This document shows, one piece after another, positions 32,737-58,937 of a stretch of 64,000 bases of DNA. The position numbers and the translations under genes are program-made. This stretch comes from an archaeon. Its GTDB lineage: Archaea > Iainarchaeota > Iainarchaeia > Iainarchaeales > CSSED10-239. The DNA is taken from assembly GCA_041657425.1 (NCBI GenBank), contig JBBABY010000004.1, positions 1,377 to 65,376 of the forward strand, in the 5' to 3' direction. Position 1 is the stretch's first letter. Each line of letters opens with the position of its first letter. The notes under the pieces are model-generated. The model was not told the origin of the DNA. It ran no database searches and saw nothing but the letters and a program-made list of their open reading frames with translations.

Positions 32737-35700
32737 TTAATTACCATTATAACTTTGTATTATTTGATTTTTTACATTTGAAGAAACCTTTATTTTGTCT
32801 TCTTCCCATTTAATATAAGCCCCAAATAGCTCGGTGTTTAAACAAGCATTCCCATTTTCTACTTGATCTAATGCGTCTTGTAAGGATATTACTTTAGAAA
32901 CACTAGAATGCATTTGTAAATTTGTAACCCCTGTAGTGCTATTTAAATCATATAATCTAGAACCACTATTATTATCTAATCCATCTAACGACAAGGTTAG
33001 AAGTCCTAAATTAATTTGAGGATTAACTGGCAAGTAAATTAATGATTCTAATAAATAGTTCGGATTAAGATTACTACCATATTTACTTACGAATTGTGGT
33101 TTTGTAATTGTATGTCTTAAATAAATACTATGTGGCCCATAAATTGCATTATCAGTAATTGTATTTACATAATTAAAATCACTTTGATCTTTCCATTTGA
33201 TAAATGATGGCCAACTTAATATTTGAGTGTTCTGAGATTTCAATATATAATTAAAATTTTGGTCTTGTATTCCACTAACTTTTGCAAATATGTTTACTGG
33301 TAAAGATGGTGTAAAATTCAAACGCAAATTTATTTTATTATTTGTAATTTTATCTATTTCTAAATCAAATAACGTTCCATCAGAATCTAATACATCTGAA
33401 ACTTGCCAACCAATGTCGTAACTAGTTGGGTGTGATGCAGTAATATTTACAACTCCACTACAATCTCGCTCTTCACAATTAGTTGTTGCCTTATATAATT
33501 TTACAGTTGATGTTCCTAATAATGCAACATCTATTAATTCATTATAATTATAATCCCCAACAATAGAAGACCCATAACCAATTCTATGAACTGTTCCATT
33601 TGCTTGTTTTCCGAAATCTCCATCTATTGGTATAGAATAAAATAAATTATTGTTATTAACCGGAATCAGCCGTATTAATTTTAATTTAATTGTAAAATCA
33701 GATGGCACATTTGGGTCATAATTCTCTACAATAATTTGATATTTACCAACACTAATGGTACTTTCGTTACTTGCATCCACCTTTGATAAAGCTATTGATT
33801 TTTCAGAATCATTATCTAGATATGCTGTTCTAAAATCACCGTCTATTAATGGTGCATTCTGAAAAGTATTATATTTTAATCTAAAATCATTTAATAAATC
33901 TTCTGAAACACCGTCTGCCATTAAATAAATATAATTATTTTGATCAGAATAATTATCATTACTACTTATTAGTGAAAATATAGAATATAACATTTGTACA
34001 GAATCACAATGTATCATATCTGCATTATAATTTAAAGAATTATCAATACATAAATTTACCCATGATTTTCCAGATGGTAATTCTGAATCTTCCCAAGCAT
34101 ACACTATCTTTGGTAAGGCCTCAACTCCTGTTTTACAAACATCAGATGATGTGCTGGATCCACATTTTCCAAGTATATAATAATCTGGCAAACTTATCTG
34201 TCCACCAACTCCTAAACAAAAAGTATTTGTCATTCCAATTTCTGAAACCGTAATTGCTGGATCTTCTGAGATATAAGACACAACAATAGTTAAATCTCTA
34301 GGTACTTCAAAAAGATTATTATTGATATTTAAATCAAAAATTATATTTTTATTATAATTTAGAGAAGATTGATTACTATCTATTAAATTTGTATAATTTC
34401 CATCAATAAAGATTATTACATCTTGATTAGAATCAGGAGAAACCAATACTGGGATAGTATTTACAGAAAAACTAGTTGGAAATGGATCTTGTAAATTTAT
34501 TTCTTCTAAATAAAGTTTATATCCTTTAGTATTATTCTTTAAATTATAGATTTTTGCAGAATTACACCAAATATTACTATGGCAATTAACACCCATACCA
34601 TTTCCATAGATGCCTGTGCCAATTGAGAATACTGAATCTCTAGGATAAATCTTTATATTTAATGGAATTGCATAAATAAAATTACTTATAGAATTACCCA
34701 CCTTTAAATTAACAGTTATATTTTTACTAATAATCTCTGTACCACTATAATTATTTGCTAAATTAAAATTAAAAGTTACTAGGCCAGACAATTTATTGCC
34801 ACCTGAAACTACATTTTCTGTGTAGTTAAACTCCACTATATTATTAATATCTTCTCCAGCTATTGTTATATCTAATAAGTTATAATTTGCATCTCTAGTT
34901 TCAAATAATAAATCTAGATTATAGTCTAATGTTTTACTTTCGGAAAGATCAGTTATTAATTCTAAATTGTTGCCACCATTACTATCTGAATAATACCCCT
35001 CAGGAGTATTTTCAAATTTAGAATGGTCTGTAATTGTTACTTTTTGTACTAATACAAGAGAATTTGTATCTCTATAAATTGTAATTGTAGTATTATCTAA
35101 AGAATTTTGGATTTTAAAAATATTATTATATTGGAAATCAATTGGACCAGCTGGTGCATTTGAATCAATTAAAACACTGGTAATAACTTCTGTGTTTTCT
35201 CCTAAAATCCCTTTTGGCAGATTATTCTCTGAAACTAAATTAGAATTGATTATCTCTGTTTCTAGATAATTATTATCAGCTACCGATATTTCTTCTATAC
35301 TTACAATACTATTTGTTCTTTTTTTAATTATATAATTATTAGTTACAAGAGATGTGCTTTCTATTCCATTTACATCTAAAATTGTATTATTAAATATTAA
35401 TCTATTATTACTAGTAATCAACTTTCCTTCCAAATCAAAGATATCTATTCCGTACCCAATTGTTAGTGATTTAGATAATTCATTATTTGGGATATTTAAA
35501 CCAGTCATTGTAAATATAAATGTAATTGTCTGTCCTGAAAAATTATCTGGAATGAATATTTGAGTATTTAACTGATTCCCTTGAGCTTCATTTGTTTGCC
35601 CTAATTGTATCACAGAATTTTCTGTTCCAATTCTATATTTAACAGGAATATTATTTTGAGGCACTCCTACTGCATTTTTTATACTTATATTCAAATCATT

Positions 35701-39061: not shown

Positions 39062-41104
39062 TTAATCTTGGTTAAATAAACTATTTAATGGGATAAATGG
39101 AAATTCAAATCTGTCATTTCCAATTTTGCCATCTAAATAATATTCTTGACCATAGCAATACAAATAATCACCACTAACTAATGTAGGCAAATCTTCATCA
39201 GGAGATGCACCGTAATACTTTAGTTCATTTTTTGTTATTTTATATACATACATATTTAAGTCTTCATTAAGTTCGCCAATTATTGGAACTTTATTTATAT
39301 ACACCGGCAATGTTCGTCCATCAGCTCTTTTTGTAATATATTTCTGGTAAGGCGTAGTATCATAAGAATAAAATATTTTTAAATCTTCAGGAGCAATTGT
39401 TCCTGATTTATTTGAATATAAATTATATTCTCCTGTATATCTGTTAATTGAATTATCTAAATCGATAATTTCACAATATGGACAATATTTATATGTTACA
39501 TCTATTCCTGAAGCACCCAACATACTACTAACTGCGTCCTTATTTGTCGCAAAAATATATTTAAAACCATTTACATTATAATTGACTGATGTCGGATTAA
39601 TATAACAACCATTTATCTTTATAGTATTATAAAAATAATCTATATCAAATATATCTATATTTGCAGTTATATTTTTTGGCAAAAAAGAACCATTCTTTAA
39701 ATTATTTATATCTATCCCGGATAGTTTTAAATTTAAATTGTTTAATGGTCTCATATTTCCTGCATTTTCAAAAACATCATTTCCACCATTATTTGTAGAG
39801 TTTTGAGCTAATTGATAATCTGCGTTTGTAAAATTAAATATTGAAGTAAATTCAAAATTTGAGGAATTATTTTCTAAATAGTTGATATTTAAATTTCCTA
39901 ATTTCCCTGGTTGGCCAAAAGTTGCGTCATTATAATAAACACAAGTATCATCAGAAATCGTTGATGTTTTAGCTAATGCCCCATTCTTTATGTTTAATTG
40001 AAATTCAGAAGTGCTAGATTTATTTAATAGACTAGTAATATTAACATCACTTATATTTCCACCACTGCCACCATTCCCATTTTTCCCATCTTGACAATGT
40101 TCGCCTTTATCTGCTCTTTGCATTGCGCCCATTCCTCCATCTCCTGCAACTAAATAAAGTTTAAAAACATTATAATTTCCAATTTCTTTTATACTTTTTA
40201 TATTAATATATCCCCCACTACCTCCATTACCTCCATTAAATGTCTCATCCGAACTATCATCTATTGAAGAATATCCTCCGGTCCCACCATTTCCTGTTTT
40301 TAAATTTATAATCAAATCCTGATAGTTAGAGATATAATTTACATTAAAATCTATGTTCCCTGAATTTCCTCCGTGTCCGCCAGACTGGTCATAACTACCA
40401 CCACAATCTGCTTTATCTCTATATTCTCCATCTCCACCTATGCCAGTATTTAAATCAATATTTATATTTCCATAATTCTCAATATAATTAACATCTAAAG
40501 ATACATGCCCACTTCCGGAACCATTTGGATAACTTGAAGCGCCACAATTATTATTACGCCCTCTAGATATTCCATTAGTACTTAACATTTTTATATTTAG
40601 GACAGAATTATTCTCTACAGAAATAGACTTTATTTTTAAAGCATAAGATTTATCACTTGGTGACGAATAATTTGACAAGATATTTAACGTTTTTCCTGAT
40701 TCTAAAATAAGATTAGGTAGCTTAATATTATTTGCATTCGCACCTATTAAAATATTTGTACTATTACTTATAATTAAATAATCAATAAAATTGGAAGTTT
40801 CCATTGAGAAATCAAAATTCGCGTTTAAACTTAGCTGTCTATTGTTTGTATGAAATTTAACTGTATAGCCGTCACAATTTTGAACGGCATAAAGAGAATT
40901 AATTGCAGTATTATTATTTACAACAATGTTACTTGTAAAATTACAAATACAAATATTTGAACTGGAATCACAAGAATCACAATTGACTTTTCCTGCAAAT
41001 GGAGATTCAGATGGAAAACTAATAATACAACTCGCAAACATAGAATTTAATAATAAGGTCATTGCCATTATTAAAAAAATAAATGTTATTGTTTTTCTTA
41101 TCAT
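39062..41104 (-). CDS. Secreted Gly-rich repeat protein, beta-helix-like (680 aa from ATG 41104).
   Basis: The signal-like N-terminus is MIRKTITFIFLIMAMTLLLNSMFASC. There are at least four repeats of the form G.GG.GG...I.F.VNYI.NY....I.L.TG.GG.G. The track ORF's upstream extension overlaps the previous gene. Confidence 0.7.
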   Translation of the reverse strand: MIRKTITFIFLIMAMTLLLNSMFASCIISFPSESPFAGKVNCDSCDSSSNICICNFTSNIVVNNNTAINSLYAVQNCDGYTVKFHTNNRQLSLNANFDFSMETSNFIDYLIISNSTNILIGANANNIKLPNLILESGKTLNILSNYSSPSDKSYALKIKSISVENNSVLNIKMLSTNGISRGRNNNCGASSYPNGSGSGHVSLDVNYIENYGNINIDLNTGIGGDGEYRDKADCGGSYDQSGGHGGNSGNIDFNVNYISNYQDLIINLKTGNGGTGGYSSIDDSSDETFNGGNGGSGGYINIKSIKEIGNYNVFKLYLVAGDGGMGAMQRADKGEHCQDGKNGNGGSGGNISDVNITSLLNKSSTSEFQLNIKNGALAKTSTISDDTCVYYNDATFGQPGKLGNLNINYLENNSSNFEFTSIFNFTNADYQLAQNSTNNGGNDVFENAGNMRPLNNLNLKLSGIDINNLKNGSFLPKNITANIDIFDIDYFYNTIKINGCYINPTSVNYNVNGFKYIFATNKDAVSSMLGASGIDVTYKYCPYCEIIDLDNSINRYTGEYNLYSNKSGTIAPEDLKIFYSYDTTPYQKYITKRADGRTLPVYINKVPIIGELNEDLNMYVYKITKNELKYYGASPDEDLPTLVSGDYLYCYGQEYYLDGKIGNDRFEFPFIPLNSLFNQD

Positions 41105-41117
41105 TTTTATCACGTAA

Positions 41118-41546
41118 TTATGATACTTGCTTAAATACAAATGGTAATGAGACAGAATTATTTTCTGAAACTGAATTAGTATAACAAAAAATTGTAGACA
41201 TGGTATATGGCCAAATAAAATCTTTTGCAACTAATATCTGTGGATCTTTATTGCCTGTATTTCTTAAAAAGAAATTAATACTTTTGTTTCCATTAGAGAA
41301 TATAAAATTATTAGATATTGACGTTTCTTCGCCAACAAGATTTGGAGAAAATGCACTGCCTAAAAAAGGAGCATTACAGAAACTAAACTCAGGGTTATCA
41401 ATTGTAATTCTTCCAAAAATTATGGGAGTAATATTCTTATTTTGATCATTAAATGTAATCCAATCAAGGTTGTCTTCTGCAAAAATAGGACCAGTACTTA
41501 TTAATAGAAAGAAAACTACAAATAAATATTTGAAATTATTTTGCAT
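41118..41546 (-). CDS. Small secreted protein, hypothetical.
   Basis: The 142-aa protein has the signal peptide MQNNFKYLFVVFFLLISTGPIFAEDN. It lies 13 nt upstream of the Gly-rich protein gene. Confidence 0.55.
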   Translation of the reverse strand: MQNNFKYLFVVFFLLISTGPIFAEDNLDWITFNDQNKNITPIIFGRITIDNPEFSFCNAPFLGSAFSPNLVGEETSISNNFIFSNGNKSINFFLRNTGNKDPQILVAKDFIWPYTMSTIFCYTNSVSENNSVSLPFVFKQVS

Positions 41547-41862: not shown

Positions 41863-44800
41863 CTAATCTGAGATTCCGTCTATTTCTATTCCATTGTATA
41901 TGTCATTTATTTCGTATATAACTTTAGGGTTCCAATAAAACTCTGTAACTTTCCCGTTTTCAGTATTTACTACACATATTTGGTCAGTCTTTACTTTTTC
42001 AAATATAGTATTTACACTGTCAATAGTATTATCTGTGTTACCAACCTTTATTTCTGAAGTTGGTTTCTTTTCCGAGTTATAGTAAAATCCTACAGAATCT
42101 CTTGATTTACTTGTTAGTGTATAAGTTATTGGGCTGTTTTCAGTATCGTATGGCGTGTAAAATATTGTTCTTAAGTTCACTGTTCCTCTTTTTGAAACTG
42201 TATCCCAATCAACAGCATATGAATTAAATATTCTTTCATCAGGTGTTGTTTGTCTATCATAGAAGTTCATAAATCTTGAATAAACATAATCTCCTGAGAA
42301 ATCATAATACTGTGGATCTTCTTTACTTACCCCACTCCAAACCCCTAAACTGCTTCCTCCAGTTACTGCTTGTCCAGAATGGTCTTTTAATTGATAATAA
42401 GCAGTAAATGGTAACAAGTTTGTTCTTGTAACTGACATTAATACAGGTGTTGCAACACTTGGAGAATAGATCATATCAATTTGATCTTCCTGTTTTTCTT
42501 TAACAATTAATATATTTCCTCTAGTTTCAACATTACTATTTGCTTTAAAGAAATCTTTATTGAATTGTACATTTAAATATTTCTTAGGGTTTGAACTACT
42601 ACTGTATTCTGTTCTTAATTCTCTATTTATTTCTTTATCAATTACTATAGAGTCTCCAATATATGCTAGGCCGTAGTTTTGTCTGGAATAGTTATTGTTA
42701 TTCTGTCCAACAAATCCATCAAATGGCATTCTGTAAAATACACTGTCATTATCTGGGCCTTTAATATATGTAAATGTAACAGTTACATTTGAATCTACAT
42801 CTCCTGCATCATTTACTAGTTTCCAATCTTCGTTATTATATATGAAATCAATTCTTACTTTGTAAAGGCCAGGAACTAAAATATTTACTCCATTTGGTGT
42901 GGTTGAGTATTTTAGAGCAAATGTAGTATTATCTTTTAACACAGAAGAATAAATTCCATCATTATAGAAACCAGGAGAACTTAAAAATCCAGTTCCACTT
43001 GTACTTCCTCTTGATGCTTTTCCACCATATGCTTTATCAAAATCATTTAAGAATTGTGCATTGTAATTATCTGTGATTAGATATGCATCAAACTCTAATG
43101 TTTGTTTTAATGGTTTTATTTGTGTTTCTAAATCCCATTCTGTAACAACGTTATTTGGATATTGAGGTTTATTAAACCACATATCTATGTAATCCACTCC
43201 ATTGAACTGAGCAGTTGTTGCTGGCACTTGGCAAGAAGTATTGTTTGATGCTTCATGCACACTTGCATTGATATCTGAAACAAATCTAGTATAACCTAAA
43301 TCCTCAGTATATGTATTTGCTCCTGCATAAATTAATGTTAATGGAATATTGTTTGCAATAATCTGAGAACTCTCTGTTCCATATGTAAATATATAATCTG
43401 CAGTATCATCTGCTGGGATTGTAATTGGTATTGCTTGTGTACTTGTAGTTACTGGAGTTGAAATTGTGTCTCCAGTTGAATCTAATGTTTCATAAGAGAC
43501 TGGCGTGTAACTTCCAAAATCAATATTTAATAGTCCTGTCTGTAGAGTTGTTGTTCTATTCTCTACAGCAACTTTCACTTTTATTAATTTCCCTTCAGTT
43601 CCTAATCTTACTTCTTGTAATCCAGTATAACCAACAGGAACACTTTCAATATTCCAACTTGGTGTTGAAGACATAACAGAATAATTTTCATTTAAAGTTT
43701 CATCAATTACTTGACTTGTACTTTTTGGACAACTTATTTTTCCATTATCTCTTTGTACTTTTATTTGTTCATCTGCTTTTACAATTCTATTAATTATTAC
43801 TTGAGACAACTGAGTTGCATCACAATATTGATCACCATTACTACAGTCATTAATATTTTCTTCATTCCAAGTCCAATCAAACTTGACTTTTGGTAAGGCC
43901 CCTTCCCCTGTTTTCCCAGTCTTTCCTGAATCCGTAAAACAATCAACCATATTTAGATCAACTTGTGGTTTTTCAGGATACTGTTTAGACATTATTGCAA
44001 ATCTAAAATCTGAATATCCAATTGGATCAGAACCTACAAATGCAGAATCTTGTCCGGCATTTTGATCATCTAAAGTTGGATAGAAAGTTATATTTTTATA
44101 AATTATATCTCCAGCTTCTAATCTTGTAATTAAATTTACATCTGAGATATTAAACACTAAAGGTTTAATTCCAGCTTGTTCTGGCCAGATTGTTGTGTCA
44201 TATTTACAAAATGAATATACATATGCCTGTAAATAAATTCCTTTTCTTGGCCACGCACCACTACATTTTACATCATATGTAGCTTTTTGATCAGTTTCTG
44301 AAATAGAACTAAATTCACTATCACAATTTTTAGAATTAATTATATAATTATACCTATTTAATTGAGTTTTATTTTCACTACCATTACATAATGGAATTAC
44401 CATCGATAGAGTTTTATCTTTTGCAAGTTTTCCACTACCAACACCGTATGCTTGCAAATAAGTCATATATCTAGCACCAGTAATATCAAATATATTTAAA
44501 TATTCTAATTGACTATCCTCAGAATTGGTTATAATTATTTTTTTATCTAATACCCAATCTGGAACCTTATATTCTTGTTCAATATTTACTGTATTGTATA
44601 TTGGATTATACGTATAATCACTAAAAAATGTAGGTATAGCAATTGCTGCTGCCCCACCAACTAACCCTCCAATTAAAACAAATGGGAATGCGGCTGCAGA
44701 AACTGTAATTAATGGGCCTATCCATCCTGCACTTGTAGCAATTTGAGTAAGTACTCCTAAGATTCCACCATTACGAATTAAATTAATTCCTGCAGGAGGG

Positions 44801-47800
44801 GTAGAATTTGTATTTCCTAAAGTACTAAATTGCTCAAATTTCATTTTTTTATAACCATTATCGCCGGAATTAAATAAAATCATATATTTACTAAATCCTT
44901 CATCTCCAACTTTCTGTGTTGCATAGTCCCAAGGTGTAGTATTGATATCACTGTTAAGTAGTCTTACTGGCTGACTGATATAGATTTCATCTTGCTTTTC
45001 TACTTCAATGAATGGGTCTTCCATATAAAGCCCACTTGCACTGTGTACATTTACTTTTAATCTCTTTTCTATCGTTGTGATTGCTCTTCCACTATCGCTA
45101 AGAACAGAGATTCTTACTGGAATAATATATCCACCTGGACTTCCTGGTTTAATGATTCCTGCAGTTTGACTATCAGTACCAAGATTAAAAGATAATTGAT
45201 TTTGAAGATATCCTTCCATATTGCTGTATCTTAACTCTTGACAACCGGTGTAACCTTTGTCTTCTCCACAGAAGGAAAGCTTAAAGGTTCCAAGAGTGGA
45301 ACAATTATTCTTGATTACTATTTCTTTTGACTGTCCTTCTATTGTTTCTTTTGTTATTACTAACATATTGTTTATCTTTTGACTTCCATCATAGAAATCA
45401 ATACAGTCTTCTATTTTTCTTATTGCAATTTCTGTGGTGAATGCAATGTCCTTTGTTGTATTAACATACTTAAGCCCTGTGTCTGTTTCAATTTGAGCAT
45501 TAATATATATCTTAGTTTCAATATCTCCCATTTTCTTATCTAAAGAATAATAAGTAAGTATTGCTGAATGAACGCCAGGAGAAAGATCATTTAAAAGAGT
45601 TGTATAACTGCCTTCTGAAAGAGTTATTGTTCTTCCATCAACATTTAATGTATAATATCCATATTGATCTTTTTGATTAACCATTTTTGCTCTTAGTGTC
45701 TTAAGAGTTATTGATTCTTCGTCATTTCCTTTGACTTTACAATTATTAACTATATCAAAACTTACTGAAGTGGTATCGTTTCCACTAACAACTGCTTGCC
45801 AAGGATTGCTTACTCCATTAACAACTAAACAATCGTCTTCTTCTACTCCTTCTCCCACTGACACTTTAACAGCCATTGGGATATTAAATGCATATTCTGC
45901 TTGTGAATTATCTACTGTAACATAACCAATTATGTTACCAGTAATATTTAATGTTTCTGTTAAGTTTGTTGTATCTTGTGAAGCCGAAAGCTTAATATCT
46001 AAATCTGTTTCTCCATTTGCAGGAATTATTATACTTGGCACTTGTGAATTCAAATATTGTTGTAATTGACTTACATTAATATAATTAGAATATCTAAAAC
46101 TAAAACTATCGTCTCTAAATGGTTTTAATTGTAAGGAATAATTTGTTTTGTTTATTATTGTTATTGTCTTTTCTGAACCTTCTGGGTTTGATTTACGAAC
46201 ATTAATTATAAACGGAGATGTTTCTGTAACCACTGCAGTTCCTTGCTTTAAAGAAAGAATGTCTTGATTGATTGTTATCTCTACTGGTACAGCATAGTAT
46301 CCACTTTTCTCTACAGAAATAATTATCTTCTCGGAATTATTAAGAGCAGGAATTGGTATTGCTACTGTTCCATAATCATCTGTTCTGTATGTTCCACTAG
46401 TTACTGTAACTTGTTGATTGTTTGCTAATTTTTGATAAATATTAACAAGCGCACCAGAAACAGGAAGAACTGAATTATCAAGAGCAGTTACTGTTAAAGT
46501 AAATGGTTTACCTGGAACTATATTTTGTGGTTCATAACTTATTGTAAAAGGATATTCTTGAGCAACATTAAAATTAATAAACTCATTATAAACAACAGAT
46601 TGATTTGAAATTATTTTATTCTGTATTCTTGTTGTTCCTAAAAGTACTGGTTTAATTGTTGTGTCAATATTTATTTTATCATAAACATTTATTTGAGTGG
46701 AGGGCAAATAATCGCTTGTAAATGGCATCTTGTTTCTTATTTGATTTCCACTTGTACTTGTTTGTAAAAACCCGCCACCGAAAATATTATAACTTAAAAT
46801 ATTAATCGCTTGTGTTTCTAATTCTGTAGTAGTGTCTACATTTGTAATTGCTAATCTATTACTTGTATAAACATTTGATTTGGCATTAGTTAAAATATAT
46901 TTAAAATCATAATTCTTATTTACAACTAAACTATTTACTCCTGCTTCTAAATCATAAACAATATCGTCTGCGGTGTCTACGAACTGACCAGAAATACAAA
47001 AGTTTTCTGAGCAGATTTCTGAGACGTCAATATAATATACTCTTTGATTTCCTAGGTTATCAATACTTGTTGGACTACCAGTAAACACAGAATAATAGAT
47101 TGGAACTGCTTGCCCTCTTAAAGCATGTACTGTTGAAACAGGTATTTGTATTTCATATACTCCTTGGCTAGCATTAATAAAAGTTGCATCAATTACTTTT
47201 GCAAAAGTATCTTGTTGTACTGCTGTAAGATTTATATTACTATAATAACTAATATTTGCTTTAGAATTGGTTATTGGTTTAATGTAAACAATATCTTCTT
47301 CTGCAGTATCTTGTTCTCCTACCACAAATCTAATTCCAATATTTCCTGCACTTGGATTTATTAATTTAAATTTAAAATAATATCTTGAATTTTGAGCTAA
47401 AAAACTTGCATTTATATCTTGTTGATTATACAACCCTACAAGTTCGACTGTTGGAGTAGTTATTGTTCCAACTCTGTTTAATCTAATTTCTTTTGTTATT
47501 GTTTCATTTGTAATGATTGGCAATAATTCTGTATAATAATCTAAATATCCTTCTTTTGATATCTTTACATAAATTACCTTGTCTGCTTTTATTTTTCTGG
47601 TATATGTACCATTCTGTAGTGCTTGATCAACACCAATTTCATTACCTATAACATCATATATTTTGACGTTTGCAAAATCAATTGTTTCCTGATTAATGTT
47701 TTTAATATTAAAACTAATAGTTCCTTCTCCAATATTTATTGTCATTACCATATTTGTGTCAATTGGAGGATTATGTGTAAATTTACCTGATTGATTAATA

Positions 47801-49293
47801 ACATTTACTTTTCTTAATTTAATAAAATAATATCCTTTTGGGATGTTATCAAAAGTTGCAGTTCCATTATTATCTGTAACGACAGATGTAAATCTAGTAT
47901 CTTGATAATTAGAATTGCCATCATAAATTAATAAGGTTCCTCCAATTACTGGAAGATTATCTTCATCAACAACAGAAACATTAATATCAGAAATATTACT
48001 TACTGTTTCTTTTTCTAGAAATATCATATAATCTGCTACATTTGGAGTTATATCTCTATTCTCTGGAATGTAACCTTGTGATCTTATAGTTAAAGAATAT
48101 GCTTTACTTGTGTCTATTCTAAATGTTACTCCTGCAGTTGTGTATTGCTTAGTATCTACAGTTTGTTTAGTCCCATTAACGTCAGTAATTAACAAAATAC
48201 TTGTTGGAATTACACCGTCAATTTCAAGACTAGTGTCTTCATCTTTAACTATTACTCTAATATCTTTTGTGGTTATTGTTGTTACAGTATCTCCTGGAAC
48301 GACTGGTGTGTTTATTGCATTAAGTTCTAAACTTACTTGCGTTTCTATATTCTTTGTAATTATAAATTCGGTCTCTGCTGTTTGGTATCTTAAAGAATCA
48401 TCTGTTGCAACAACAATATAGTTTCCGACTTCTAAATTTGGAAATCTCCTAGAACCAAACTGTGATTGACCAGAAGTTACTGGGTTAATTGAATCTCCTT
48501 CCTTATAAACTCTTAAAGTAATTCCATCTAAGAAATTAGTTCCGCTTTTTACTTTTACTGTTGCTTGCCCAAAACTTGTGTTTATTACTTTAGGAGGAAC
48601 TGTTACAATTCCTGTTTCTTGATTAATTACAATATTTTGTCCAGAATAATTCGTTCCAATTGCAGTAGCTACTAATTTCGTACAAGATACTGGAACATTA
48701 AATATACTTGTGCCCGTTGTTACTGTTGATGTTGATGGGTCTATTGATGAGCCATCTTGACAAGTAATTGTTACATTTAAACTTTCTAAAATTGCTTGGC
48801 CATTAGTTCCAACAAATCTTAATGACTTTTCTTGTATTGAAGCAAGAACAAATAGTTCAACAATAAAATTCTGCTTTGTTTTACTTAAATCAATTATTTC
48901 ATCTTTATACTTATATCCTTTTTTATCTACAATTATAGAATAATCTCCAAATTTATTTAGCTCTACTGTTGTTTGTCCTTTACTATCGGTTCTATAGTTC
49001 TGAGTTATTCCATTTAAAGAATCATTTAATTGGAATTCAAAATTTTTTAGTAATTGCCCATTACTATCTGCTAGTCCAATTGTAAAAGTAATATATTCTT
49101 CTTTTTCTCCTACTGCCCCAAATGGTTTAAAAATAAGTAATAGTATTACTGCGATAATTAATACAAATAATATCAAAGACGCTAACGGATGAATCTTGTC
49201 AATTGGCCTCGTTAACCATTTAATTGGAACTCTATTGTTTATTTTATCTAAAAAAGCTTGGTAATTTAAAGCAAATGACATTTTTCTATTCAC
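41863..49293 (-). CDS. Giant (2476 aa) N-terminally anchored surface protein with CarboxypepD_reg-like repeats, a central hydrophobic hairpin and the shared C-terminal module.
   Basis: The N-terminus has FLDKINNRVPIKWLTRPIDKIHP followed by a TM helix. There are at least five prealbumin-like repeats. Near residue 1530-1590 lies GILGVLTQIATSAGWIGPLITVSAAAFPFVLIGGLVGGAAAIAIPTFF. The C-terminal motif is GEGALPKVKFDW...YCDATQL. Confidence 0.85.
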   Translation of the reverse strand: MNRKMSFALNYQAFLDKINNRVPIKWLTRPIDKIHPLASLILFVLIIAVILLLIFKPFGAVGEKEEYITFTIGLADSNGQLLKNFEFQLNDSLNGITQNYRTDSKGQTTVELNKFGDYSIIVDKKGYKYKDEIIDLSKTKQNFIVELFVLASIQEKSLRFVGTNGQAILESLNVTITCQDGSSIDPSTSTVTTGTSIFNVPVSCTKLVATAIGTNYSGQNIVINQETGIVTVPPKVINTSFGQATVKVKSGTNFLDGITLRVYKEGDSINPVTSGQSQFGSRRFPNLEVGNYIVVATDDSLRYQTAETEFIITKNIETQVSLELNAINTPVVPGDTVTTITTKDIRVIVKDEDTSLEIDGVIPTSILLITDVNGTKQTVDTKQYTTAGVTFRIDTSKAYSLTIRSQGYIPENRDITPNVADYMIFLEKETVSNISDINVSVVDEDNLPVIGGTLLIYDGNSNYQDTRFTSVVTDNNGTATFDNIPKGYYFIKLRKVNVINQSGKFTHNPPIDTNMVMTINIGEGTISFNIKNINQETIDFANVKIYDVIGNEIGVDQALQNGTYTRKIKADKVIYVKISKEGYLDYYTELLPIITNETITKEIRLNRVGTITTPTVELVGLYNQQDINASFLAQNSRYYFKFKLINPSAGNIGIRFVVGEQDTAEEDIVYIKPITNSKANISYYSNINLTAVQQDTFAKVIDATFINASQGVYEIQIPVSTVHALRGQAVPIYYSVFTGSPTSIDNLGNQRVYYIDVSEICSENFCISGQFVDTADDIVYDLEAGVNSLVVNKNYDFKYILTNAKSNVYTSNRLAITNVDTTTELETQAINILSYNIFGGGFLQTSTSGNQIRNKMPFTSDYLPSTQINVYDKINIDTTIKPVLLGTTRIQNKIISNQSVVYNEFINFNVAQEYPFTISYEPQNIVPGKPFTLTVTALDNSVLPVSGALVNIYQKLANNQQVTVTSGTYRTDDYGTVAIPIPALNNSEKIIISVEKSGYYAVPVEITINQDILSLKQGTAVVTETSPFIINVRKSNPEGSEKTITIINKTNYSLQLKPFRDDSFSFRYSNYINVSQLQQYLNSQVPSIIIPANGETDLDIKLSASQDTTNLTETLNITGNIIGYVTVDNSQAEYAFNIPMAVKVSVGEGVEEDDCLVVNGVSNPWQAVVSGNDTTSVSFDIVNNCKVKGNDEESITLKTLRAKMVNQKDQYGYYTLNVDGRTITLSEGSYTTLLNDLSPGVHSAILTYYSLDKKMGDIETKIYINAQIETDTGLKYVNTTKDIAFTTEIAIRKIEDCIDFYDGSQKINNMLVITKETIEGQSKEIVIKNNCSTLGTFKLSFCGEDKGYTGCQELRYSNMEGYLQNQLSFNLGTDSQTAGIIKPGSPGGYIIPVRISVLSDSGRAITTIEKRLKVNVHSASGLYMEDPFIEVEKQDEIYISQPVRLLNSDINTTPWDYATQKVGDEGFSKYMILFNSGDNGYKKMKFEQFSTLGNTNSTPPAGINLIRNGGILGVLTQIATSAGWIGPLITVSAAAFPFVLIGGLVGGAAAIAIPTFFSDYTYNPIYNTVNIEQEYKVPDWVLDKKIIITNSEDSQLEYLNIFDITGARYMTYLQAYGVGSGKLAKDKTLSMVIPLCNGSENKTQLNRYNYIINSKNCDSEFSSISETDQKATYDVKCSGAWPRKGIYLQAYVYSFCKYDTTIWPEQAGIKPLVFNISDVNLITRLEAGDIIYKNITFYPTLDDQNAGQDSAFVGSDPIGYSDFRFAIMSKQYPEKPQVDLNMVDCFTDSGKTGKTGEGALPKVKFDWTWNEENINDCSNGDQYCDATQLSQVIINRIVKADEQIKVQRDNGKISCPKSTSQVIDETLNENYSVMSSTPSWNIESVPVGYTGLQEVRLGTEGKLIKVKVAVENRTTTLQTGLLNIDFGSYTPVSYETLDSTGDTISTPVTTSTQAIPITIPADDTADYIFTYGTESSQIIANNIPLTLIYAGANTYTEDLGYTRFVSDINASVHEASNNTSCQVPATTAQFNGVDYIDMWFNKPQYPNNVVTEWDLETQIKPLKQTLEFDAYLITDNYNAQFLNDFDKAYGGKASRGSTSGTGFLSSPGFYNDGIYSSVLKDNTTFALKYSTTPNGVNILVPGLYKVRIDFIYNNEDWKLVNDAGDVDSNVTVTFTYIKGPDNDSVFYRMPFDGFVGQNNNNYSRQNYGLAYIGDSIVIDKEINRELRTEYSSSSNPKKYLNVQFNKDFFKANSNVETRGNILIVKEKQEDQIDMIYSPSVATPVLMSVTRTNLLPFTAYYQLKDHSGQAVTGGSSLGVWSGVSKEDPQYYDFSGDYVYSRFMNFYDRQTTPDERIFNSYAVDWDTVSKRGTVNLRTIFYTPYDTENSPITYTLTSKSRDSVGFYYNSEKKPTSEIKVGNTDNTIDSVNTIFEKVKTDQICVVNTENGKVTEFYWNPKVIYEINDIYNGIEIDGISD

Positions 49294-51375: not shown

Positions 51376-54300
51376 TTAATTAATATTACTAAAATTATAT
51401 TCAGATACATTACTACATTTTTCTGGATCTGAATTTAATAGACACACTTTTGCAAATAATTTTTTGTTTTCTGCGGAATTAATATCTCCCATATGTATTC
51501 TACAAATATTATTTTCATATGCACTACACCAATACCAAGTATCTTGATTATCGTTATTCCAATAAATTCTTGATTCAGAATTGTTGTTTGGGTTAATAAT
51601 TTCTAAATTCAAATAATTATTAGAGGTGTTTGCTCTAAAAGTTGGTGCTTGGAGATTTAATTTTTTTATTTTCTCTGGATTTAACCAAATATTTAATGAA
51701 TCATTTGTAGTATTAAAACAAACTTGATTATATTTTATTAAACCTAACATATATCCTACATTTACAGTTTCTATTCCTGAAAATAAATCTTCGAAATCAA
51801 TAAGTTCTTGATTTTCTGTTTCTAAATTATTAGGTATATTGTATGATTTAATATTTGCATTTATTTCTGGGGTTAATGACATATTTAATTGTAATTCGTC
51901 TCTTGAGGTTAATACCAATTGAGGATTATTTCCTCTAAAATTCAAATAAACAAATACAGTTTCTTTACCTGCCGTTTTGTTTATTACTGGCTCATTATAA
52001 CTACCGTTTGGTTTTAAATATTTATAATTATAATTTCCAGCAGAGATTATTTGTATTGGTCTTATATTTTTATAAGAAATCTTTTCTATTTGTGTTCCTG
52101 TAGATTTAAATGATAAAACATATCCATCTTGTACTGCGGCCCAATCTTCATAGGTTGTAGGAGCATATGCATTACCAGAAATTGCCCCCATTGCTGAATC
52201 ATTAAATTTAAATGGCACGCCGTAGTAGTTAGTATATATTGCATTTATTGGATTTGTAAACAATAAATTCTTTTTATAATCTGGATTACTATCCATATTA
52301 TAATAATCTAAAAATCTTTTTGTATCTTCTGAGGTATTTTTCACACTATATTTAATATTAGTTCCTTCTAATTTTAATTCAAATAAATATAATCCTGGTC
52401 CACTTATTTCTTGTACTTCTGAAGTATTCAATAACGCAATTGGTTTATTTGATTCGTTTAAAAACTGAATAGAAGTAAATATATCTTTTGTTAATCCGTT
52501 AGTTAAAGACCCGTAAGTTTTAGTATTAACTAATATTGGAGATATTGAATCACCATAGTATATTTTCATATTTTCTATTACCTGCTTTAGAAATACAATA
52601 TTCTTTCTTTTAAAATCTAAATCAGTTGAAGTATTGTTTAAATATGTTTTAAAAGAGGCTTGATTTTTCAAAAAAGAATCAACAGTTATTTGATAGGTGT
52701 AAATATCTTGCATTGGACTTGTCATATCTCTTTTTGCATTTGATTCAGTGGTTAAATAAGTCAAGTACTTATAATTATTATTTCCACTTATTTTGTTTAT
52801 TCTTTCAGATATTTCGTTTAATTCTATTTTTGTTCCAATAATTGAATCATTTTTATTTGTAAATGTTAAATCCAGTATTATATATTTTCTTAATTCTTCT
52901 GGAACCTTGTTTAATGTAGTAATTAAAGTTTCTAAATATACATCTGGATCTTCAGAGTAACTAAAATCAGAAGTAATTAAATTTGCTACTTGAATATCAT
53001 TTCTTATATCCGTTAAATAAATATCTGAATTTTCATTAATTTTATTTTCTTCGGATTTACTAAACATTACGCCATCTAAAGTAATTATTTTTTGTTCTTC
53101 AATTAATTTTACTTTCTCTAATAATGCAACTTTTAATTGATCCTGATCACAATATTTTTCTCCGTAGTCACAAGAATTGTGCTTTATTCCGTCTGCATCA
53201 TAAATAAATAACAATTTATTAAATCCATATTTCTCTTGATTTATTTTGCCAGTTAATCCTGTATTATCTGTTCCTTGTGGATTATAACAATTACCTGTGT
53301 CTCCTGTTGATGAAGTAATAAATTTAGACAATGAACTATGATTTTCACTTGAAATTAATTTTTTACTACAACCAAAAGCCTTAAGATCTGCATTAAGAGT
53401 AAATGTTATATCTTTTACTTTTTTATCAAACCAGTACCATCTTTTTTGTTTTATTGAAAAGGTTTTAACAAGATTATTTTCTAAAAATGGTTTATTTTCA
53501 ATTATTCTTTCTGTATCATTAAGTAAATCTATTGGTCTATTAATACAAACTTCAATTTTCTTACCATCTGCTAATACCGTTAATTTTGAAATTACATCGC
53601 CATTTACAATTGTTCCACTCCCTGCTAAAATATAATTTTTAGGATTTTGTAGTTCTGGCAAATCAATTGTTTCTATAAAACAAGCAGTAGCATAATTACT
53701 TATTTGTTTAAAATTATATTTTGAACTTAAAAATAATTTTAAAATATTTATATCGACAACAGAATTAGAATAAGTTAATGTAGAATATTTAGTGGTGTTA
53801 TTACTAGAATAATAATTTGCATTATCATTATTATAACTTAAACTTAATCTTTCTTGTAATGTTGCAGTCTCTAAAGTGTCACAATCAAACATCCCTGTTC
53901 CTACCTCATATAGTTGTCCAATTTCTTGTAATTTAGGTTCTATAGGGGTAATTGTAACTGGTTCTATAGGCAAATCTTTAATATCAATAGGTGGTAACTC
54001 TACATTTATATCTATATCTGGACATAATTCTTGCTTTATTATTTGCCCTGCTGCTGTAGATAAATCTAATGTGCCAACGGCATTTCCAGTTCTTGGATCA
54101 CATCTTGTTGCTGCGGCGTCTCCAGGAGAACAACTATAACAAATTGCGCCTACTCCATTATAAATTAAATTACCAACATTCATATTTCTAGGATAATATT
54201 TTGATGAAAAATATCCTTCTCCACAGCTACCTGGACAAATGCCTCCATTTATTGTTTGGATATTTGATGTTACTGTTACTTCTCGTGTTCTAATATCATA

Positions 54301-56003: not shown

Positions 56004-58937
56004 TTAGTTTCTTATACAACTAAATTCGGAGGTTGTAACATTATTGTTTGTTTCAAGTTTAGTGTCTATTAGATCAGTTAATGGTTCTGAGATTGTTTTT
56101 GGATTATAAACTACATCTAATGTTGAACCATCATAGTTGATACATGCTTTTTTTGCAGCAACTAAATCAAATATGTGCTTCATTGATCTGACGTCACTTG
56201 CAGTTCCATAAACGTTTGTTAATTCTACTTGATCTTGTGCAATTTTACTATCAGAAGTATATAATCCTGCACTATCGTTTGCTGAATCAATATATAAGTA
56301 ACTTGTACTGTGTCCTGTTCTGAAATTTGATGGAGTGTAGAATATTCCATACATCCAAACATTTCCGGTTCTTGTAATTATATCTTTATTCCATTCTACA
56401 CCGTAACTAAAGCTCTGGCTTTGTGTTACTGGCGCCAATTCTGATTTTGTTGAAACAAGATCATGGGTTGCTAAGAAGCTTTCAAGTAATGGTATTCCTG
56501 TAAAATCATTACATTGGGAAAAACCAGTCCAGTATGCTAATGATTGTCCAGGATTTGCAACTTCTCCACCTTCTCCTTGTGGCATGCCTATTGATAATTT
56601 ATAGAAGACATATGCATCTGTATTTACTGCTTTGTTTGTAACTTTAAGAACAACTGGTGTTGGTCTTGAAGGAATATATCTTACATTTAACACATTATTT
56701 TGAGATCTATTAATTGATAATAATTTTCCTCTTTCATTTCCATTATTCATAATTGTGAAATCTTTAACTTCTGTTGTTTTAATTGTTGAAATGGTGTTTG
56801 AAGAAATATATCCTTCAGTATACATTGTGCCTTGTCCGTTATTTTCAGAATCTAAGAATATTGGGACTTTATCTTGTAAATAATCTACACCATAACCGTT
56901 TCTTGTCTTATCTACACTACCAACCATTCCATTAAGTGGCATATAGTAAACTGAAGAATCAAGTTCTGGCTCTTGTTCTTTATCAATTATTATTTCTATC
57001 TTTCCGGTCATATCTCCAGCATCATTGAATAATTCCCATTGATCGTCATAAGTTATTAATAATTTAATACTATATCTTCCTGGTCCTGGTAAACCTGTTT
57101 GAGCAACACTATCTGCATATGTTGGTTTAAACGCAAATTTTTCTGCGTCTACGAAGTATTTGTATAATGGAGCATAACTGTCTGTACTTGTTATTAATCC
57201 ATTTCCATACCATCCAGGTGTTTGAGAATTGAATGTAAATCTATAATAGTCATCAAAATCTTTTTTGAAATCTGCACTATATCCATCTTTCATTAAGTAT
57301 GCTTTGAAAGTATATAATTCATTTTTGAAATTTGGATCATATTTAATTAGATTTTCTGAAGTCTTTGGAATATTACATGCTGTTGTTCCTTCAGTGTTTG
57401 TTTGCATTTCTAGAGTATTATCTATTAAATTATTTCCGGTTTCATTATTTGCTATACTTGCATCAAAATTTGTTAAAGTAATAATTACTTTTACTGTATC
57501 TGTTGGACCAGGTGCTGCAGACAAAGTTATTTGTTTATCATCTACATTTATTATTCCACTATTTAGATAATCAGAATCTACACTTTCTACTCCTGATGCA
57601 AGAACTACCCAATTGAATGAATTTTCTGCTTTTTTAACTACTGTATAATTAATATCAAATAATCTAATTGAGGTATTTACTGGAGGTGTTGCTAATCGAT
57701 AATTTCCTCTAATTTTATAACTCACATTTATTTTTGTTCTTTGACTTTGTATTCCGCCATTTGCGAAATTTGCATTTAAATAAGTTATTCCTACATTATT
57801 TACATCACTAATTAATGATTGATCTGAAGAATTAACTGGGCAAGTAAATCCTGAGCTATTTGCTTTTACATATTCGTTAATAGTGTTTATCTTTTGTAGT
57901 GCTTCGATTGTAAATTGAGTTGCATCACAATAGATTCCGTTTTTTGAAACATCACACCATTCTTTATTATTTACTTTTTCACTAGTTATTGTTGTTACTG
58001 CATTGTCTGCTTTAAATTGCCAATCAAAAATAATTCTTGGTAAAACTTCAGTTCCTGTTGTTCCGATTGGTTTACCATCTTCACTTGTACAATCTAATTG
58101 TTCTGGTGGAATTATGTCAATATTTTCATCAACTCTTGAGTTGAATAATAAATGGAACTTTTGTATTTTTTCTTCAGATGGATTTGGCATTCTATTTCCA
58201 TAAACGTCATCAAAATTTGTAATTTTTTTTTCTAAAATTGTTTTTGCATTATTTATTCCAGAGGTAAATATCTGATACCAACTTTTTCCTAAAATTTCAC
58301 TTGTCCCAATTGATATCTTTACTGGTTGTCTATCAAATCTTGCTTGGACATATCTTATTAATAAAGTTCTATATTCATAAGCATCTTTTATAGTTTGATT
58401 TCCATCTTCAAATAATATTGGTCTTTTTTGTCCATCTGTCTTTGTATTGTTAGAATCGATTACTGAAATCTTTTCTGTTTTTTCTGCAACTCTTATTGTT
58501 GGACTTTTATTATCTATATATGTTTCAATTTTCTTTGTTACTATGAAATCCACATCTAATACGTTTTGATCAGTTAAGACTATTGAAGTTTTTGGATTTA
58601 TTACTAATTCATCATAAGACTCTTCATAGAAATAATCTTTTTCTTTATCACTAGAAATATTTACTCTATCAACTTGTAATTCCATATTCATTTTTTCATT
58701 TAAATTTTGATAAGTGGTATATGCTGAATATGCTCCACCTATTACTCCATAAAGCACTGGGCCTCCAGCTAACAGTTTATCAAAAGTACTTACTAGCAGT
58801 CCTGCACCTTTTTCAAGAAGACTTTGTTCTACTTTGGCTTTAGCCGCATCCACCGGATCAGCAGAAACAGTCCCTATATTTACTAATAGCATTAAAGCTA
58901 TTGTTAGTCCTAAAATAAATTTTAGATTTGATTTCAT
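56004..58937 (-). CDS. Secreted 977-aa protein equivalent to the C-terminal third of the 2476-aa paralog.
   Basis: The signal peptide is MKSNLKFILGLTIALMLLVNIGTVSA. The motifs GTEVLPRIIFDW and IYCDATQF are present. FKAYLMKDGYSADFKKDFDDYY and GRYSIKLLITYDDQWELFNDAGDMTG align with the 2476-aa protein. Confidence 0.8.
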   Translation of the reverse strand: MKSNLKFILGLTIALMLLVNIGTVSADPVDAAKAKVEQSLLEKGAGLLVSTFDKLLAGGPVLYGVIGGAYSAYTTYQNLNEKMNMELQVDRVNISSDKEKDYFYEESYDELVINPKTSIVLTDQNVLDVDFIVTKKIETYIDNKSPTIRVAEKTEKISVIDSNNTKTDGQKRPILFEDGNQTIKDAYEYRTLLIRYVQARFDRQPVKISIGTSEILGKSWYQIFTSGINNAKTILEKKITNFDDVYGNRMPNPSEEKIQKFHLLFNSRVDENIDIIPPEQLDCTSEDGKPIGTTGTEVLPRIIFDWQFKADNAVTTITSEKVNNKEWCDVSKNGIYCDATQFTIEALQKINTINEYVKANSSGFTCPVNSSDQSLISDVNNVGITYLNANFANGGIQSQRTKINVSYKIRGNYRLATPPVNTSIRLFDINYTVVKKAENSFNWVVLASGVESVDSDYLNSGIINVDDKQITLSAAPGPTDTVKVIITLTNFDASIANNETGNNLIDNTLEMQTNTEGTTACNIPKTSENLIKYDPNFKNELYTFKAYLMKDGYSADFKKDFDDYYRFTFNSQTPGWYGNGLITSTDSYAPLYKYFVDAEKFAFKPTYADSVAQTGLPGPGRYSIKLLITYDDQWELFNDAGDMTGKIEIIIDKEQEPELDSSVYYMPLNGMVGSVDKTRNGYGVDYLQDKVPIFLDSENNGQGTMYTEGYISSNTISTIKTTEVKDFTIMNNGNERGKLLSINRSQNNVLNVRYIPSRPTPVVLKVTNKAVNTDAYVFYKLSIGMPQGEGGEVANPGQSLAYWTGFSQCNDFTGIPLLESFLATHDLVSTKSELAPVTQSQSFSYGVEWNKDIITRTGNVWMYGIFYTPSNFRTGHSTSYLYIDSANDSAGLYTSDSKIAQDQVELTNVYGTASDVRSMKHIFDLVAAKKACINYDGSTLDVVYNPKTISEPLTDLIDTKLETNNNVTTSEFSCIRN

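Follow-up and report, generated by a model that had tools for sequence, protein, structure and literature searches.

A C-terminal domain family in the giant surface proteins of Iainarchaeota

Several genes for very long proteins lie side by side in the genome of an uncultured archaeon of the Iainarchaeota (Diapherotrites), raising the question of what these proteins have in common and what the common part might do. The stretch that we analyzed (hereafter the window) comprises 64,000 nt of contig JBBABY010000004.1 (GCA_041657425.1), and the giant-gene cluster occupies around 31 kb of it. DPANN archaea, among which this organism is placed, have tiny genomes, and the family described here takes up tens of kilobases of such genomes with tandem genes for giant surface proteins. 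The original prediction, made from the letters of this DNA, held that four giant paralogs, which we call p2476, p977, p2102, and p1490, share a colinear C-terminal module of about 680 residues that contains cysteines and belongs to no known family. On sequence grounds, the module is a new and well-delimited domain family, characteristic of Iainarchaeota, inside the familiar class of giant surface proteins rich in immunoglobulin-like (Ig-like) domains. The only feature common to the giant genes is this domain of around 700 residues, which is described in no database and whose predicted structure has no relative.

All the peptide strings on which the prediction was built were recovered at their places by a string search of the open reading frames (ORFs). 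In p2476, TGEGALPKVKFDWTW begins at residue 1795 (43867-43911) and NGDQYCDATQLSQ lies at 43801-43839. The corresponding motif positions are 58014-58058 and 57903-57941 in p977, 34087-34131 and 33991-34017 in p2102, and 53128-53160 in p1490. The distance from the TG of the motif to the C-terminus, claimed to be nearly the same in p2476 and p977, amounts to 682 and 684 residues, respectively. These two genes were also said to share an identical string of 17 nt. This string, TATTGTGATGCAACTCA, is present in exactly two copies, both on the minus strand (43811-43827 and 57916-57932), where the number of copies expected from shuffled sequences is 0. It forms an island of identity within largely divergent flanking DNA, which rules out gene conversion or recent recombination as its source and points instead to AT-biased codon choice on the invariant YCDATQ.

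The similarity between the proteins extends far beyond this short motif. By BLASTP, residues 1783-2461 of p2476 align with residues 281-951 of p977 at 25.8% identity over 757 columns (E 7e-40), and the comparison of the two modules alone gives an E-value of 2e-42. For p2102 and p1490, BLASTP identified the motif region (E around 1e-4 to 1e-5), plus one more block in p2102; the full-length module in these two proteins went undetected by BLASTP and was detected by profiles. A hidden Markov model (HMM) built from 162 modules, which replaced an HMM of p977 orthologues alone that had given weak colinear matches, matches p2102 with an E-value of 7.7e-14 in two colinear pieces (HMM positions 23-88 on residues 1628-1705, and 269-652 on residues 1707-2085), with about 180 profile positions skipped. 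A jackhmmer search seeded with the C-terminus of p2102 alone also converges on the whole family. The p1490 subfamily profile comprises 10 sequences and takes in the C-termini of larger giants from the related loci L001, L009, and L010. When it was compared with the module profile using hhalign, the probability was 91.7% (E 7.7e-7) and the 527 colinear columns spanned nearly the entire module.

The conservation of 55 hallmark residues follows the same gradient. p2476 keeps 49 of them, p2102 keeps 23 in the core (including R1821, Y1824, G1825, W1945, and C2068) in addition to the motif, and p1490 keeps 20 (including C854, C893, C900-D901, C1377, and N1390-P1391). In the numbering of p977, p1490 has lost the equivalents of R679, Y682, G683, and W803 and has kept those of C932 and N945-P946. 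Its N-terminal motif is degenerate, consisting of TG at 866-867, C854, C893, C900-D901, and Q904. These comparisons indicate that all four proteins carry the module, p2102 in a compact form and p1490 as a degenerate member. The claim of a colinear module shared by four paralogs is thus upheld, with a similarity that is graded, and it is the length of about 680 residues that does not apply to p2102, whose module has around 475 residues and is without the Ig-like insert of about 180 residues. The description of the paralogs as giants needs one correction, since p977 is not itself a giant and makes up the C-terminal half of one that is split into p1577 and p977 (see below).

To describe the anatomy of the module we used the numbering of p977. 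The AlphaFold2 (AF2) model of this protein, computed with 36 sequences, has a mean predicted local distance difference test (pLDDT) of 77, with values mostly between 80 and 95 inside the module. The predicted secondary structure and the pattern of conservation divide the module in three parts. The motif subdomain (residues 280-370) contains TGxExLP, W306, and C328...YC337DATQ running into a helix of 25 residues, and is bracketed by C283 and C366, which brings its near-invariant cysteines to four. The consensus of the motif, TGxExLP...W...C...(Y)CD(A/S)(T/V)Q followed by the long helix, is present in p2476, p977, and p2102. The insert (residues 370-515) is all-beta and Ig-like, with eight strands; its sequence and its length vary, and it is the part that p2102 does not have. 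The core (residues 516-977, around 440 residues) is composed of a short helical piece, FKAYLMKDGYSxDFxKDFDxYY, around 20 strands, and a terminal helix. Its hallmarks are D551, D560, G620, Y664-P667-G670-G673, R679-Y682-G683, W803, C932, and N945. When the core was modelled on its own, the confidence dropped in its first 200 residues or so, which suggests that these residues need the motif subdomain and pack against it.

Most of the positions that are invariant, or nearly so, in the 162 modules are occupied by glycines, prolines, aromatic residues, and cysteines, and the conserved polar set consists of D551, D556, D560, R679, N731, R736, D811, D826, and N945. The conservation of the cysteines, which the original prediction had singled out for a check, is extensive: there are six near-universal columns, of which C283, C328, C337, and C366 are conserved in nearly 100% of the modules where that region is present, C809 in 96%, and C932 in 100%. 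In addition, 150 of the 162 modules have a cysteine within their last 14 residues. p2476 is atypical in this respect, being without C809 and without the terminal cysteine. The module is predicted to contain disulfides.

We then searched for relatives of the module among known families and structures. No family of Pfam-A, NCBIfam, or PHROGs matched inside the four modules at E<=0.1, and in the modules of 36 family members Pfam gave only scattered chance matches, each in one or two members. The module profile had 0 matches at E<=1 in the sequences of the PDB. With Foldseek, the full p977 model had a best E-value of 5e-3 against the PDB, and all the matches were generic Ig-like sandwiches (RhoGDI, ester-bond adhesin repeats, integrin legs). 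Against BFVD the alignments were long and meaningless, with TM scores of at most 0.12 and a root-mean-square deviation (rmsd) above 20 Å. For the core-only model, the best E-value in the PDB was 0.05, with a probability below 0.3. Hence, the module could not be assigned to a known family, in line with the original prediction, and neither the HMM and Pfam searches nor the structure prediction followed by Foldseek mapped it to one. Our literature searches found no description of giant or surface proteins of this family in Iainarchaeota or Diapherotrites. Judging from the predicted model, the fold of the module is probably new.

These searches bear on the idea that the module is a divergent enzyme, for instance a glycosidase, a peptidase, or a lipase, directed at the envelope of the cell itself or at that of a host. 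The invariant D551, D556, D560, R679, D811, and D826 are in line with it, as is the presence of sialidases, carbohydrate-binding modules of carbohydrate esterases, and a lipase among the weak Foldseek neighbours. However, these matches have E-values of 0.05-0.4, probabilities below 0.1, and TM scores below 0.2, neither Pfam and NCBIfam nor the profile search of the PDB detected an enzyme family, and the invariant columns contain no conserved pattern of a His, Ser, or Cys nucleophile. We regard an enzymatic module as very improbable.

How widespread is the module? An exhaustive HMMER search covering 1.84 billion cluster representatives yielded 722 representatives with E-values of at most 1e-3, of which 472 reached 1e-30 or better. 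In those of the listed matches that span it, the module is at the extreme C-terminus, usually of proteins of around 2300-2600 residues, with a minority of around 970-1000 residues like p977. The tail that follows it has a median of 1 residue among the listed representatives spanning the module, and of the ORFs in the loci 98% have a tail of at most 40 residues (maximum 46). The exception is p1490, with an extra tail of around 90 residues. Word-index protein searches with the modules of p1490 and p2476 gave 5 and 9 matches, respectively, without names or Pfam domains.

When one genome of each GTDB species was scanned, 135 relatives were identified in 71 loci. Their labels are nearly all Candidatus Iainarchaeum, Diapherotrites, or unclassified archaeon, and among the members are Ca. 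Iainarchaeum andersonii and the complete genome GW2011_AR10. The few relatives with labels of Chloroflexi, Thaumarchaeota, or Micrarchaeota are probably the product of binning or labelling noise. Typical tandem giants with the module are found on two contigs from MAGs labelled Chloroflexi and Thaumarchaeota, L042 (JAFCCG010000009.1) and L060 (JAFCCH010000027.1), which are probably mis-binned Iainarchaeota. The family is essentially confined to Iainarchaeota (Diapherotrites). The module that had been noticed in the giants of this window is indeed shared by them, and is typical of the whole archaeal phylum rather than special to this genome. When we counted arrays over 72 loci (the 71 of the scan and L001), at least two module genes were present in 51, always on the same strand, and three within 22 kb in 12. 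The HMM, together with the YCDATQ motif, provides a clean marker to annotate hundreds of giants that are now called hypothetical.

The giants are homologous along their full length (e.g., residues 104-794 of p2102 with residues 10-643 of p2476). The members of this protein family are thus homologous from end to end, and the shared C-terminal module of the original prediction is their final part. Most giants open with a conserved cytoplasmic motif, YYxLEDKYYxxLDK...PVYKIIDPIDKVVPSF, followed by a transmembrane helix. The motif is found at residues 1-40 of p2476 (around 49170-49293) and at residues 97-130 of p2102 (around 38650-38760). In p2102 it is preceded by an extra N-terminal extension of about 95 residues, in which the helical 'GYSESTI..VL' resembles, by eye only, the N-terminus of a 185-residue coiled-coil family found near the giants in 19 loci. 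p2476 consists of the cytoplasmic motif, a transmembrane anchor (residues 30-64), Ig-like and prealbumin-like domains with Pfam matches to SpaA and CarboxypepD_reg, a hydrophobic hairpin, and the module; its orthologues in L001 and L007-L010 have 2426-2492 residues. An N-terminal transmembrane segment is present in p2476 and p2102, and a Sec-type signal peptide in p977 and p1490. The only Pfam domains of the giants are sandwiches of CarboxypepD_reg, bMG3, SpaA, Big_1, MG4, and SdrD_B, and Pfam revealed no enzymatic domain in 18 diverse giants. The proteins are rich in Ser, Thr, and Asn and poor in Lys and Glu when compared with the cytoplasmic proteins of the same window. We discarded the enrichment of N-glycosylation sequons as evidence of secretion, because their density, although two to four times that of the cytoplasmic proteins, is equal to what composition predicts.

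Around half of the giants have a double hydrophobic segment in the middle of the protein, which comprises 40-70 residues and precedes the motif by around 140-240 residues (median around 170). Of 91 related giants, 44 exceed the hydrophobic threshold at the equivalent region; for the 41 giants with a located motif, the count is 18. Other giants have Gly-rich linkers in its place. The region is poorly conserved, with an identity of 0.15 among orthologues. In several giants (P0051, P0061, P0066, around residues 1490-1520), a CPPC between the hydrophobic stretches is followed by DPC(D/H), possibly as a site for redox chemistry or for a metal where the protein meets the membrane; p2476 has the hairpin without the CPPC. 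A beta-rich and putatively disulfide-containing ectodomain that adjoins hydrophobic segments recalls fusexin-like class II fusogens, and flavivirus E proteins are in the Foldseek list of the core model, so that the module might be a device for membrane fusion or for bridges that make cytoplasmic contact with a host. Yet flavivirus E is there at the level of noise (E 0.08-0.3, probability 0.01-0.03, TM score 0.05-0.09, rmsd around 30 Å), BFVD gave no credible viral match, and the hydrophobic region is often absent in addition to being poorly conserved. This idea is hardly credible.

The separate p977 is best understood together with its neighbour p1577. Residues 1-1012 of p1577 align with residues 287-1273 of p2476 (E 6e-22), and the orthologues of p1577 have 1696-1822 residues and start around 289 residues earlier. 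We considered a frameshift at the 5' end of p1577 and rejected it, since the frame is simply open to the edge of the window. p977 begins with its signal peptide and a Gly-rich hydrophobic stretch, and in some unsplit giants (e.g., P0040) the similarity to p977 reaches back to its residue 37 or so. Genes like those of p1577 and p977 are adjacent in L001-L005 and L008-L010. From these alignments, p1577 and p977 make up a split version of a giant of around 2400 residues, cut at the hydrophobic or Gly-rich linker in the middle of the protein, and this is the form of the giant in the clade of the window. We infer from the split that the C-terminal region folds and functions on its own as a secreted polypeptide, and p977 would be a stable unit that folds independently. 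The C-terminal part of p1577 contains a linker, (EPSAT/EPPAT)n, which is encoded at 59236-59378 by a near-perfect tandem repeat of 15 nt (9.5 copies, 99% matches) and is flanked by Cys-rich segments that the unsplit p2476 is without.

The genes directly downstream of the giants are also recurrent. A family of small membrane proteins with four helices comprises 72 ORFs in 36 loci, all co-oriented with, and directly downstream of, a gene bearing the module. Of the 55 loci that have room for them, 34 have two such genes immediately after the last giant, and the window has both. Among the frequently conserved neighbours, these alone have an obvious link to the giants. Pfam has no family for these proteins, which may be the membrane partners of the giants. 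Other recurring neighbours are coiled-coil proteins of 158-185 residues and a protein of 505 residues, without informative Pfam assignment.

What, then, may be the function of the module? We tentatively favour a non-catalytic extracellular domain for assembly or docking in phylum-specific surface proteins, with a probability of about 0.45. The conserved cysteines, the signal peptides, and the composition rich in Ser, Thr, and Asn and poor in Lys and Glu place the module outside the cell, and we infer that it is extracellular and non-catalytic. A role in binding or assembly is suggested by the lack of an enzyme signature and by invariant residues that are mainly structural. A constant partner is favoured over a variable foreign ligand because the same hallmarks recur across the 162 modules, because many giants tether the module near the membrane, because it can exist as a separate secreted protein, and because dedicated small membrane proteins are co-encoded. 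The module would then be a common unit that holds the paralogues together or on the envelope, by docking on other modules, on the two co-encoded small membrane proteins, or on a component of the cell's own envelope. The variable Ig-like part would supply the exposed surface, and in about half of the giants the hydrophobic hairpin upstream of the module would hold it near the membrane.

Several observations argue against an assembly or docking role. No structural analogue points to any particular function of the module, and the invariant D551, D560, R679, D826, and N945 could equally make up an active site or a site that binds a ligand. Some loci are without the small membrane proteins. Among orthologues, the module is only slightly better conserved than the rest of the protein (identity of 0.47-0.50, against around 0.41). 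Finally, the hairpin is absent from p2102 and from roughly half of the giants, in which the module would be the membrane-distal tip, as in the head of an adhesin.

This last point leads to the main rival explanation, in which the giants are fibrillar adhesins. They would stand on an N-terminal transmembrane anchor, with a stalk of Ig-like, prealbumin, and MG domains, and the module at the tip would be the head that binds the ligand, be it a glycan, a mineral surface, or a partner cell. DPANN archaea are often attached to hosts. An N-terminal anchor, Ig-like repeats, and a globular end are the architecture of an adhesin, and the stalk of Ig-like repeats and surface anchor by which fibrillar adhesins are recognized are both found in the giants (matches to CarboxypepD_reg, SpaA, SdrD_B, Big_1, and MG domains, and the N-terminal transmembrane segment). 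The module would be distal in p2102 and in the half or so of related giants without the hairpin, and the weak Foldseek neighbours include ester-bond adhesin repeats, Cna, and ClfA. However, the Foldseek matches are not significant (E>=0.005) and their alignments have the length of one beta-sandwich, the recurrence of the hallmarks throughout the family fits a constant partner better than diverse hosts, and in many giants the hairpin would hold the module close to the membrane. To our knowledge, Iainarchaeota are not established as obligate episymbionts. We consider it unlikely that the module is an adhesin head, though more probable than the other alternatives.

The bacterial fibrillar adhesins (MSCRAMM/Cna, SdrD, SpaA-type, ester-bond) are among the known systems closest to the giants. 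The two groups have in common very long proteins anchored in the membrane or the wall, prealbumin and Ig-like repeats, and a globular end domain, and the weak Foldseek neighbours of the module are of that kind. In contrast, the giants are archaeal, their N-terminal transmembrane anchor is preceded by a conserved cytoplasmic motif, and they are without LPXTG, PGF-CTERM, or a type I secretion system (T1SS) signal. Their end domain of 700 residues matches no adhesin head, and many of them have a second membrane hairpin in the middle of the protein.

The arrays and the split giant bring in another possibility, namely that Iainarchaeota have a new type of archaeal surface layer (S-layer), with the tandem giants as their envelope proteins and the module as the unit that forms the lattice. 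Like archaeal S-layer proteins, the giants are extracellular, beta-rich, and membrane-tethered. The family is found throughout the phylum, typically with several copies per locus, its proteins are rich in Ig-like domains, and the split between p1577 and p977 recalls two-component layers such as SlaA/SlaB. S-layer proteins of the MSTP/DUF1608-like type have been described for several DPANN phyla (bioRxiv 10.1101/2024.05.28.596244). DUF1608/MSTP was not found among the Pfam matches of the giants or in the top Foldseek lists, nor was any other S-layer Pfam domain matched, and the lack of a canonical DPANN S-layer domain would leave room for a new type. Yet S-layers are usually made of one or two abundant proteins, not of three to five paralogues of 2400 residues, and here there are several giant paralogues per locus. 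The lattice also overlaps with the assembly domain that we favour, of which it is a more specific version. A lattice-forming unit seems improbable to us.

A broader proposal is that a new fold defines a phylum-specific apparatus for the envelope or for cell contact, with arrays of giant two-lobed membrane proteins whose C-terminal domains oligomerize and dock on the small membrane proteins. We regard this as doubtful; if true, the envelope of these archaea would have an architecture unlike the S-layers known in other archaea. Nothing that we computed shows a new mechanism. The conserved cluster of giants and two small membrane proteins is a likely basis of the cell surface of Iainarchaeota or of the contacts that they make with other cells.

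At the level of gene organization, the best analogy is the Giant1-5 cluster of Apilactobacillus kunkeei. In this bacterium, consecutive co-oriented genes for giant extracellular paralogues with a conserved terminal domain occupy a large block of a small genome; what these proteins of 3-8 thousand residues share is a beta-solenoid at the N-terminus, with a relationship to serine-rich-repeat adhesins (PMC12863079). The archaeal shared domain differs in being C-terminal, in having no recognizable relative by fold, and in belonging to proteins of 2-2.5 thousand residues. We also considered, and rejected, a relationship with alpha-2-macroglobulin (A2M). The giants have in common with the bacterial A2M-like proteins only MG-type sandwich domains, with bMG3 in 13 and MG4 in 7 of 18 related giants, in the N-terminal part. 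In contrast to these proteins, the giants gave no sign of a thioester domain, a bait region, or an A2M receptor-binding domain, and the module has no A2M match by sequence or by Foldseek.

The features of the cluster are given in Table 1. From 31979 to its end, the minus strand of the window is a single co-oriented block, with the transcription order p1577, p977, p1490, p634, p2476, p722, p2102, and the two small membrane proteins. p977 is identical to the NCBI entry 'MAG: hypothetical protein WCX82_01040 [archaeon]'. Two proteins of the block have no match to the family and module HMMs or to Pfam. One is p722, which has essentially no orthologues (a weak partial match in 2 loci only) and contains 'GGNGGSGG' repeats. 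The other is p634, whose orthologues are limited to L004 and L005, the closest two of the loci, and which is secreted and contains 3.15% cysteine.

Table 1. Location of the giant genes, their modules, and adjacent features in the window (residues in brackets; all limits inside the p2476 module are based on the secondary structure in the AF2 model of p977)
Feature	Position	Strand	Remarks
p1577 gene	58963 to beyond 64000	-	Frame open in 63697-63999; gene cut by the window
p977 gene	56004-58937	-	Signal peptide (1-27), Gly-rich hydrophobic stretch, domain of ~190 residues, then module
p977 module (261-977)	56004..58157	-	Module HMM E 4e-209; AF2 pLDDT mostly 80-95; 35 orthologue clusters
p1490 gene	51376-55848	-	1490 residues
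p1490 module, highly divergent (~845-1401)	51646..53316	-	Identified by hhalign; followed by Cys-containing tail of ~90 residues
p634	49413-51317	-	Cys-rich secreted protein between p1490 and p2476; without module
p2476 gene	41863..49293	-	Complete giant with the common architecture of ~2400 residues
p2476 module (1763-2476)	41863..44007	-	Family HMM match at 1763-2461, E 1e-78; module HMM E 2e-123
p2476 module, motif and long-helix subdomain	~43714-43941	-	
p2476 module, Ig-like insert	~43174-43713	-	
p2476 module, conserved beta-rich core	41866-43173	-	
p2476 mid-protein double hydrophobic segment (1522-1558)	44620..44730	-	Kyte-Doolittle scan; ~240 residues upstream of module
p722	39062-41230	-	Gly/Asn-rich repeat protein between two giants; without module
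p2102 gene	32737-39045	-	2102 residues
p2102 compact module (1628-2102)	32737..34164	-	Motif joined straight to core; without Ig-like insert
Small polytopic membrane protein, 131 residues	32319-32711	-	Directly downstream of last giant; homologues in 26 loci; no Pfam family
Second small polytopic membrane protein, 112 residues	31979-32314	-	Paralogue of the 131-residue protein; homologues in 24 loci

The G+C content of the window is low, around 28%, and its archaeal housekeeping genes include those of an ATP-dependent DNA ligase, an archaeal-type ProRS, HisRS, AlaRS, and Trm5. The AlaRS ORF (25462-27213, minus strand) has only 583 residues (catalytic domain and SAD); it is shorter than the archaeal enzyme usually is, and is possibly truncated or split. 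Three more genes of the minus strand, at a distance from the giants, are of interest. The first (535-2352) encodes a type II/IV secretion-type ATPase (T2SSE) with an N-terminal 4Fe-4S dicluster ferredoxin domain, an unusual fusion. The second (13094-14425) encodes a surface protein of 443 residues with a weak PKD match, outside the giant cluster. The third (14449-17805) encodes a surface protein of 1118 residues with three CHB_HEX_C/Fn3_assoc units, a GLUG motif, and a region like the N-terminal part of M26 peptidases.

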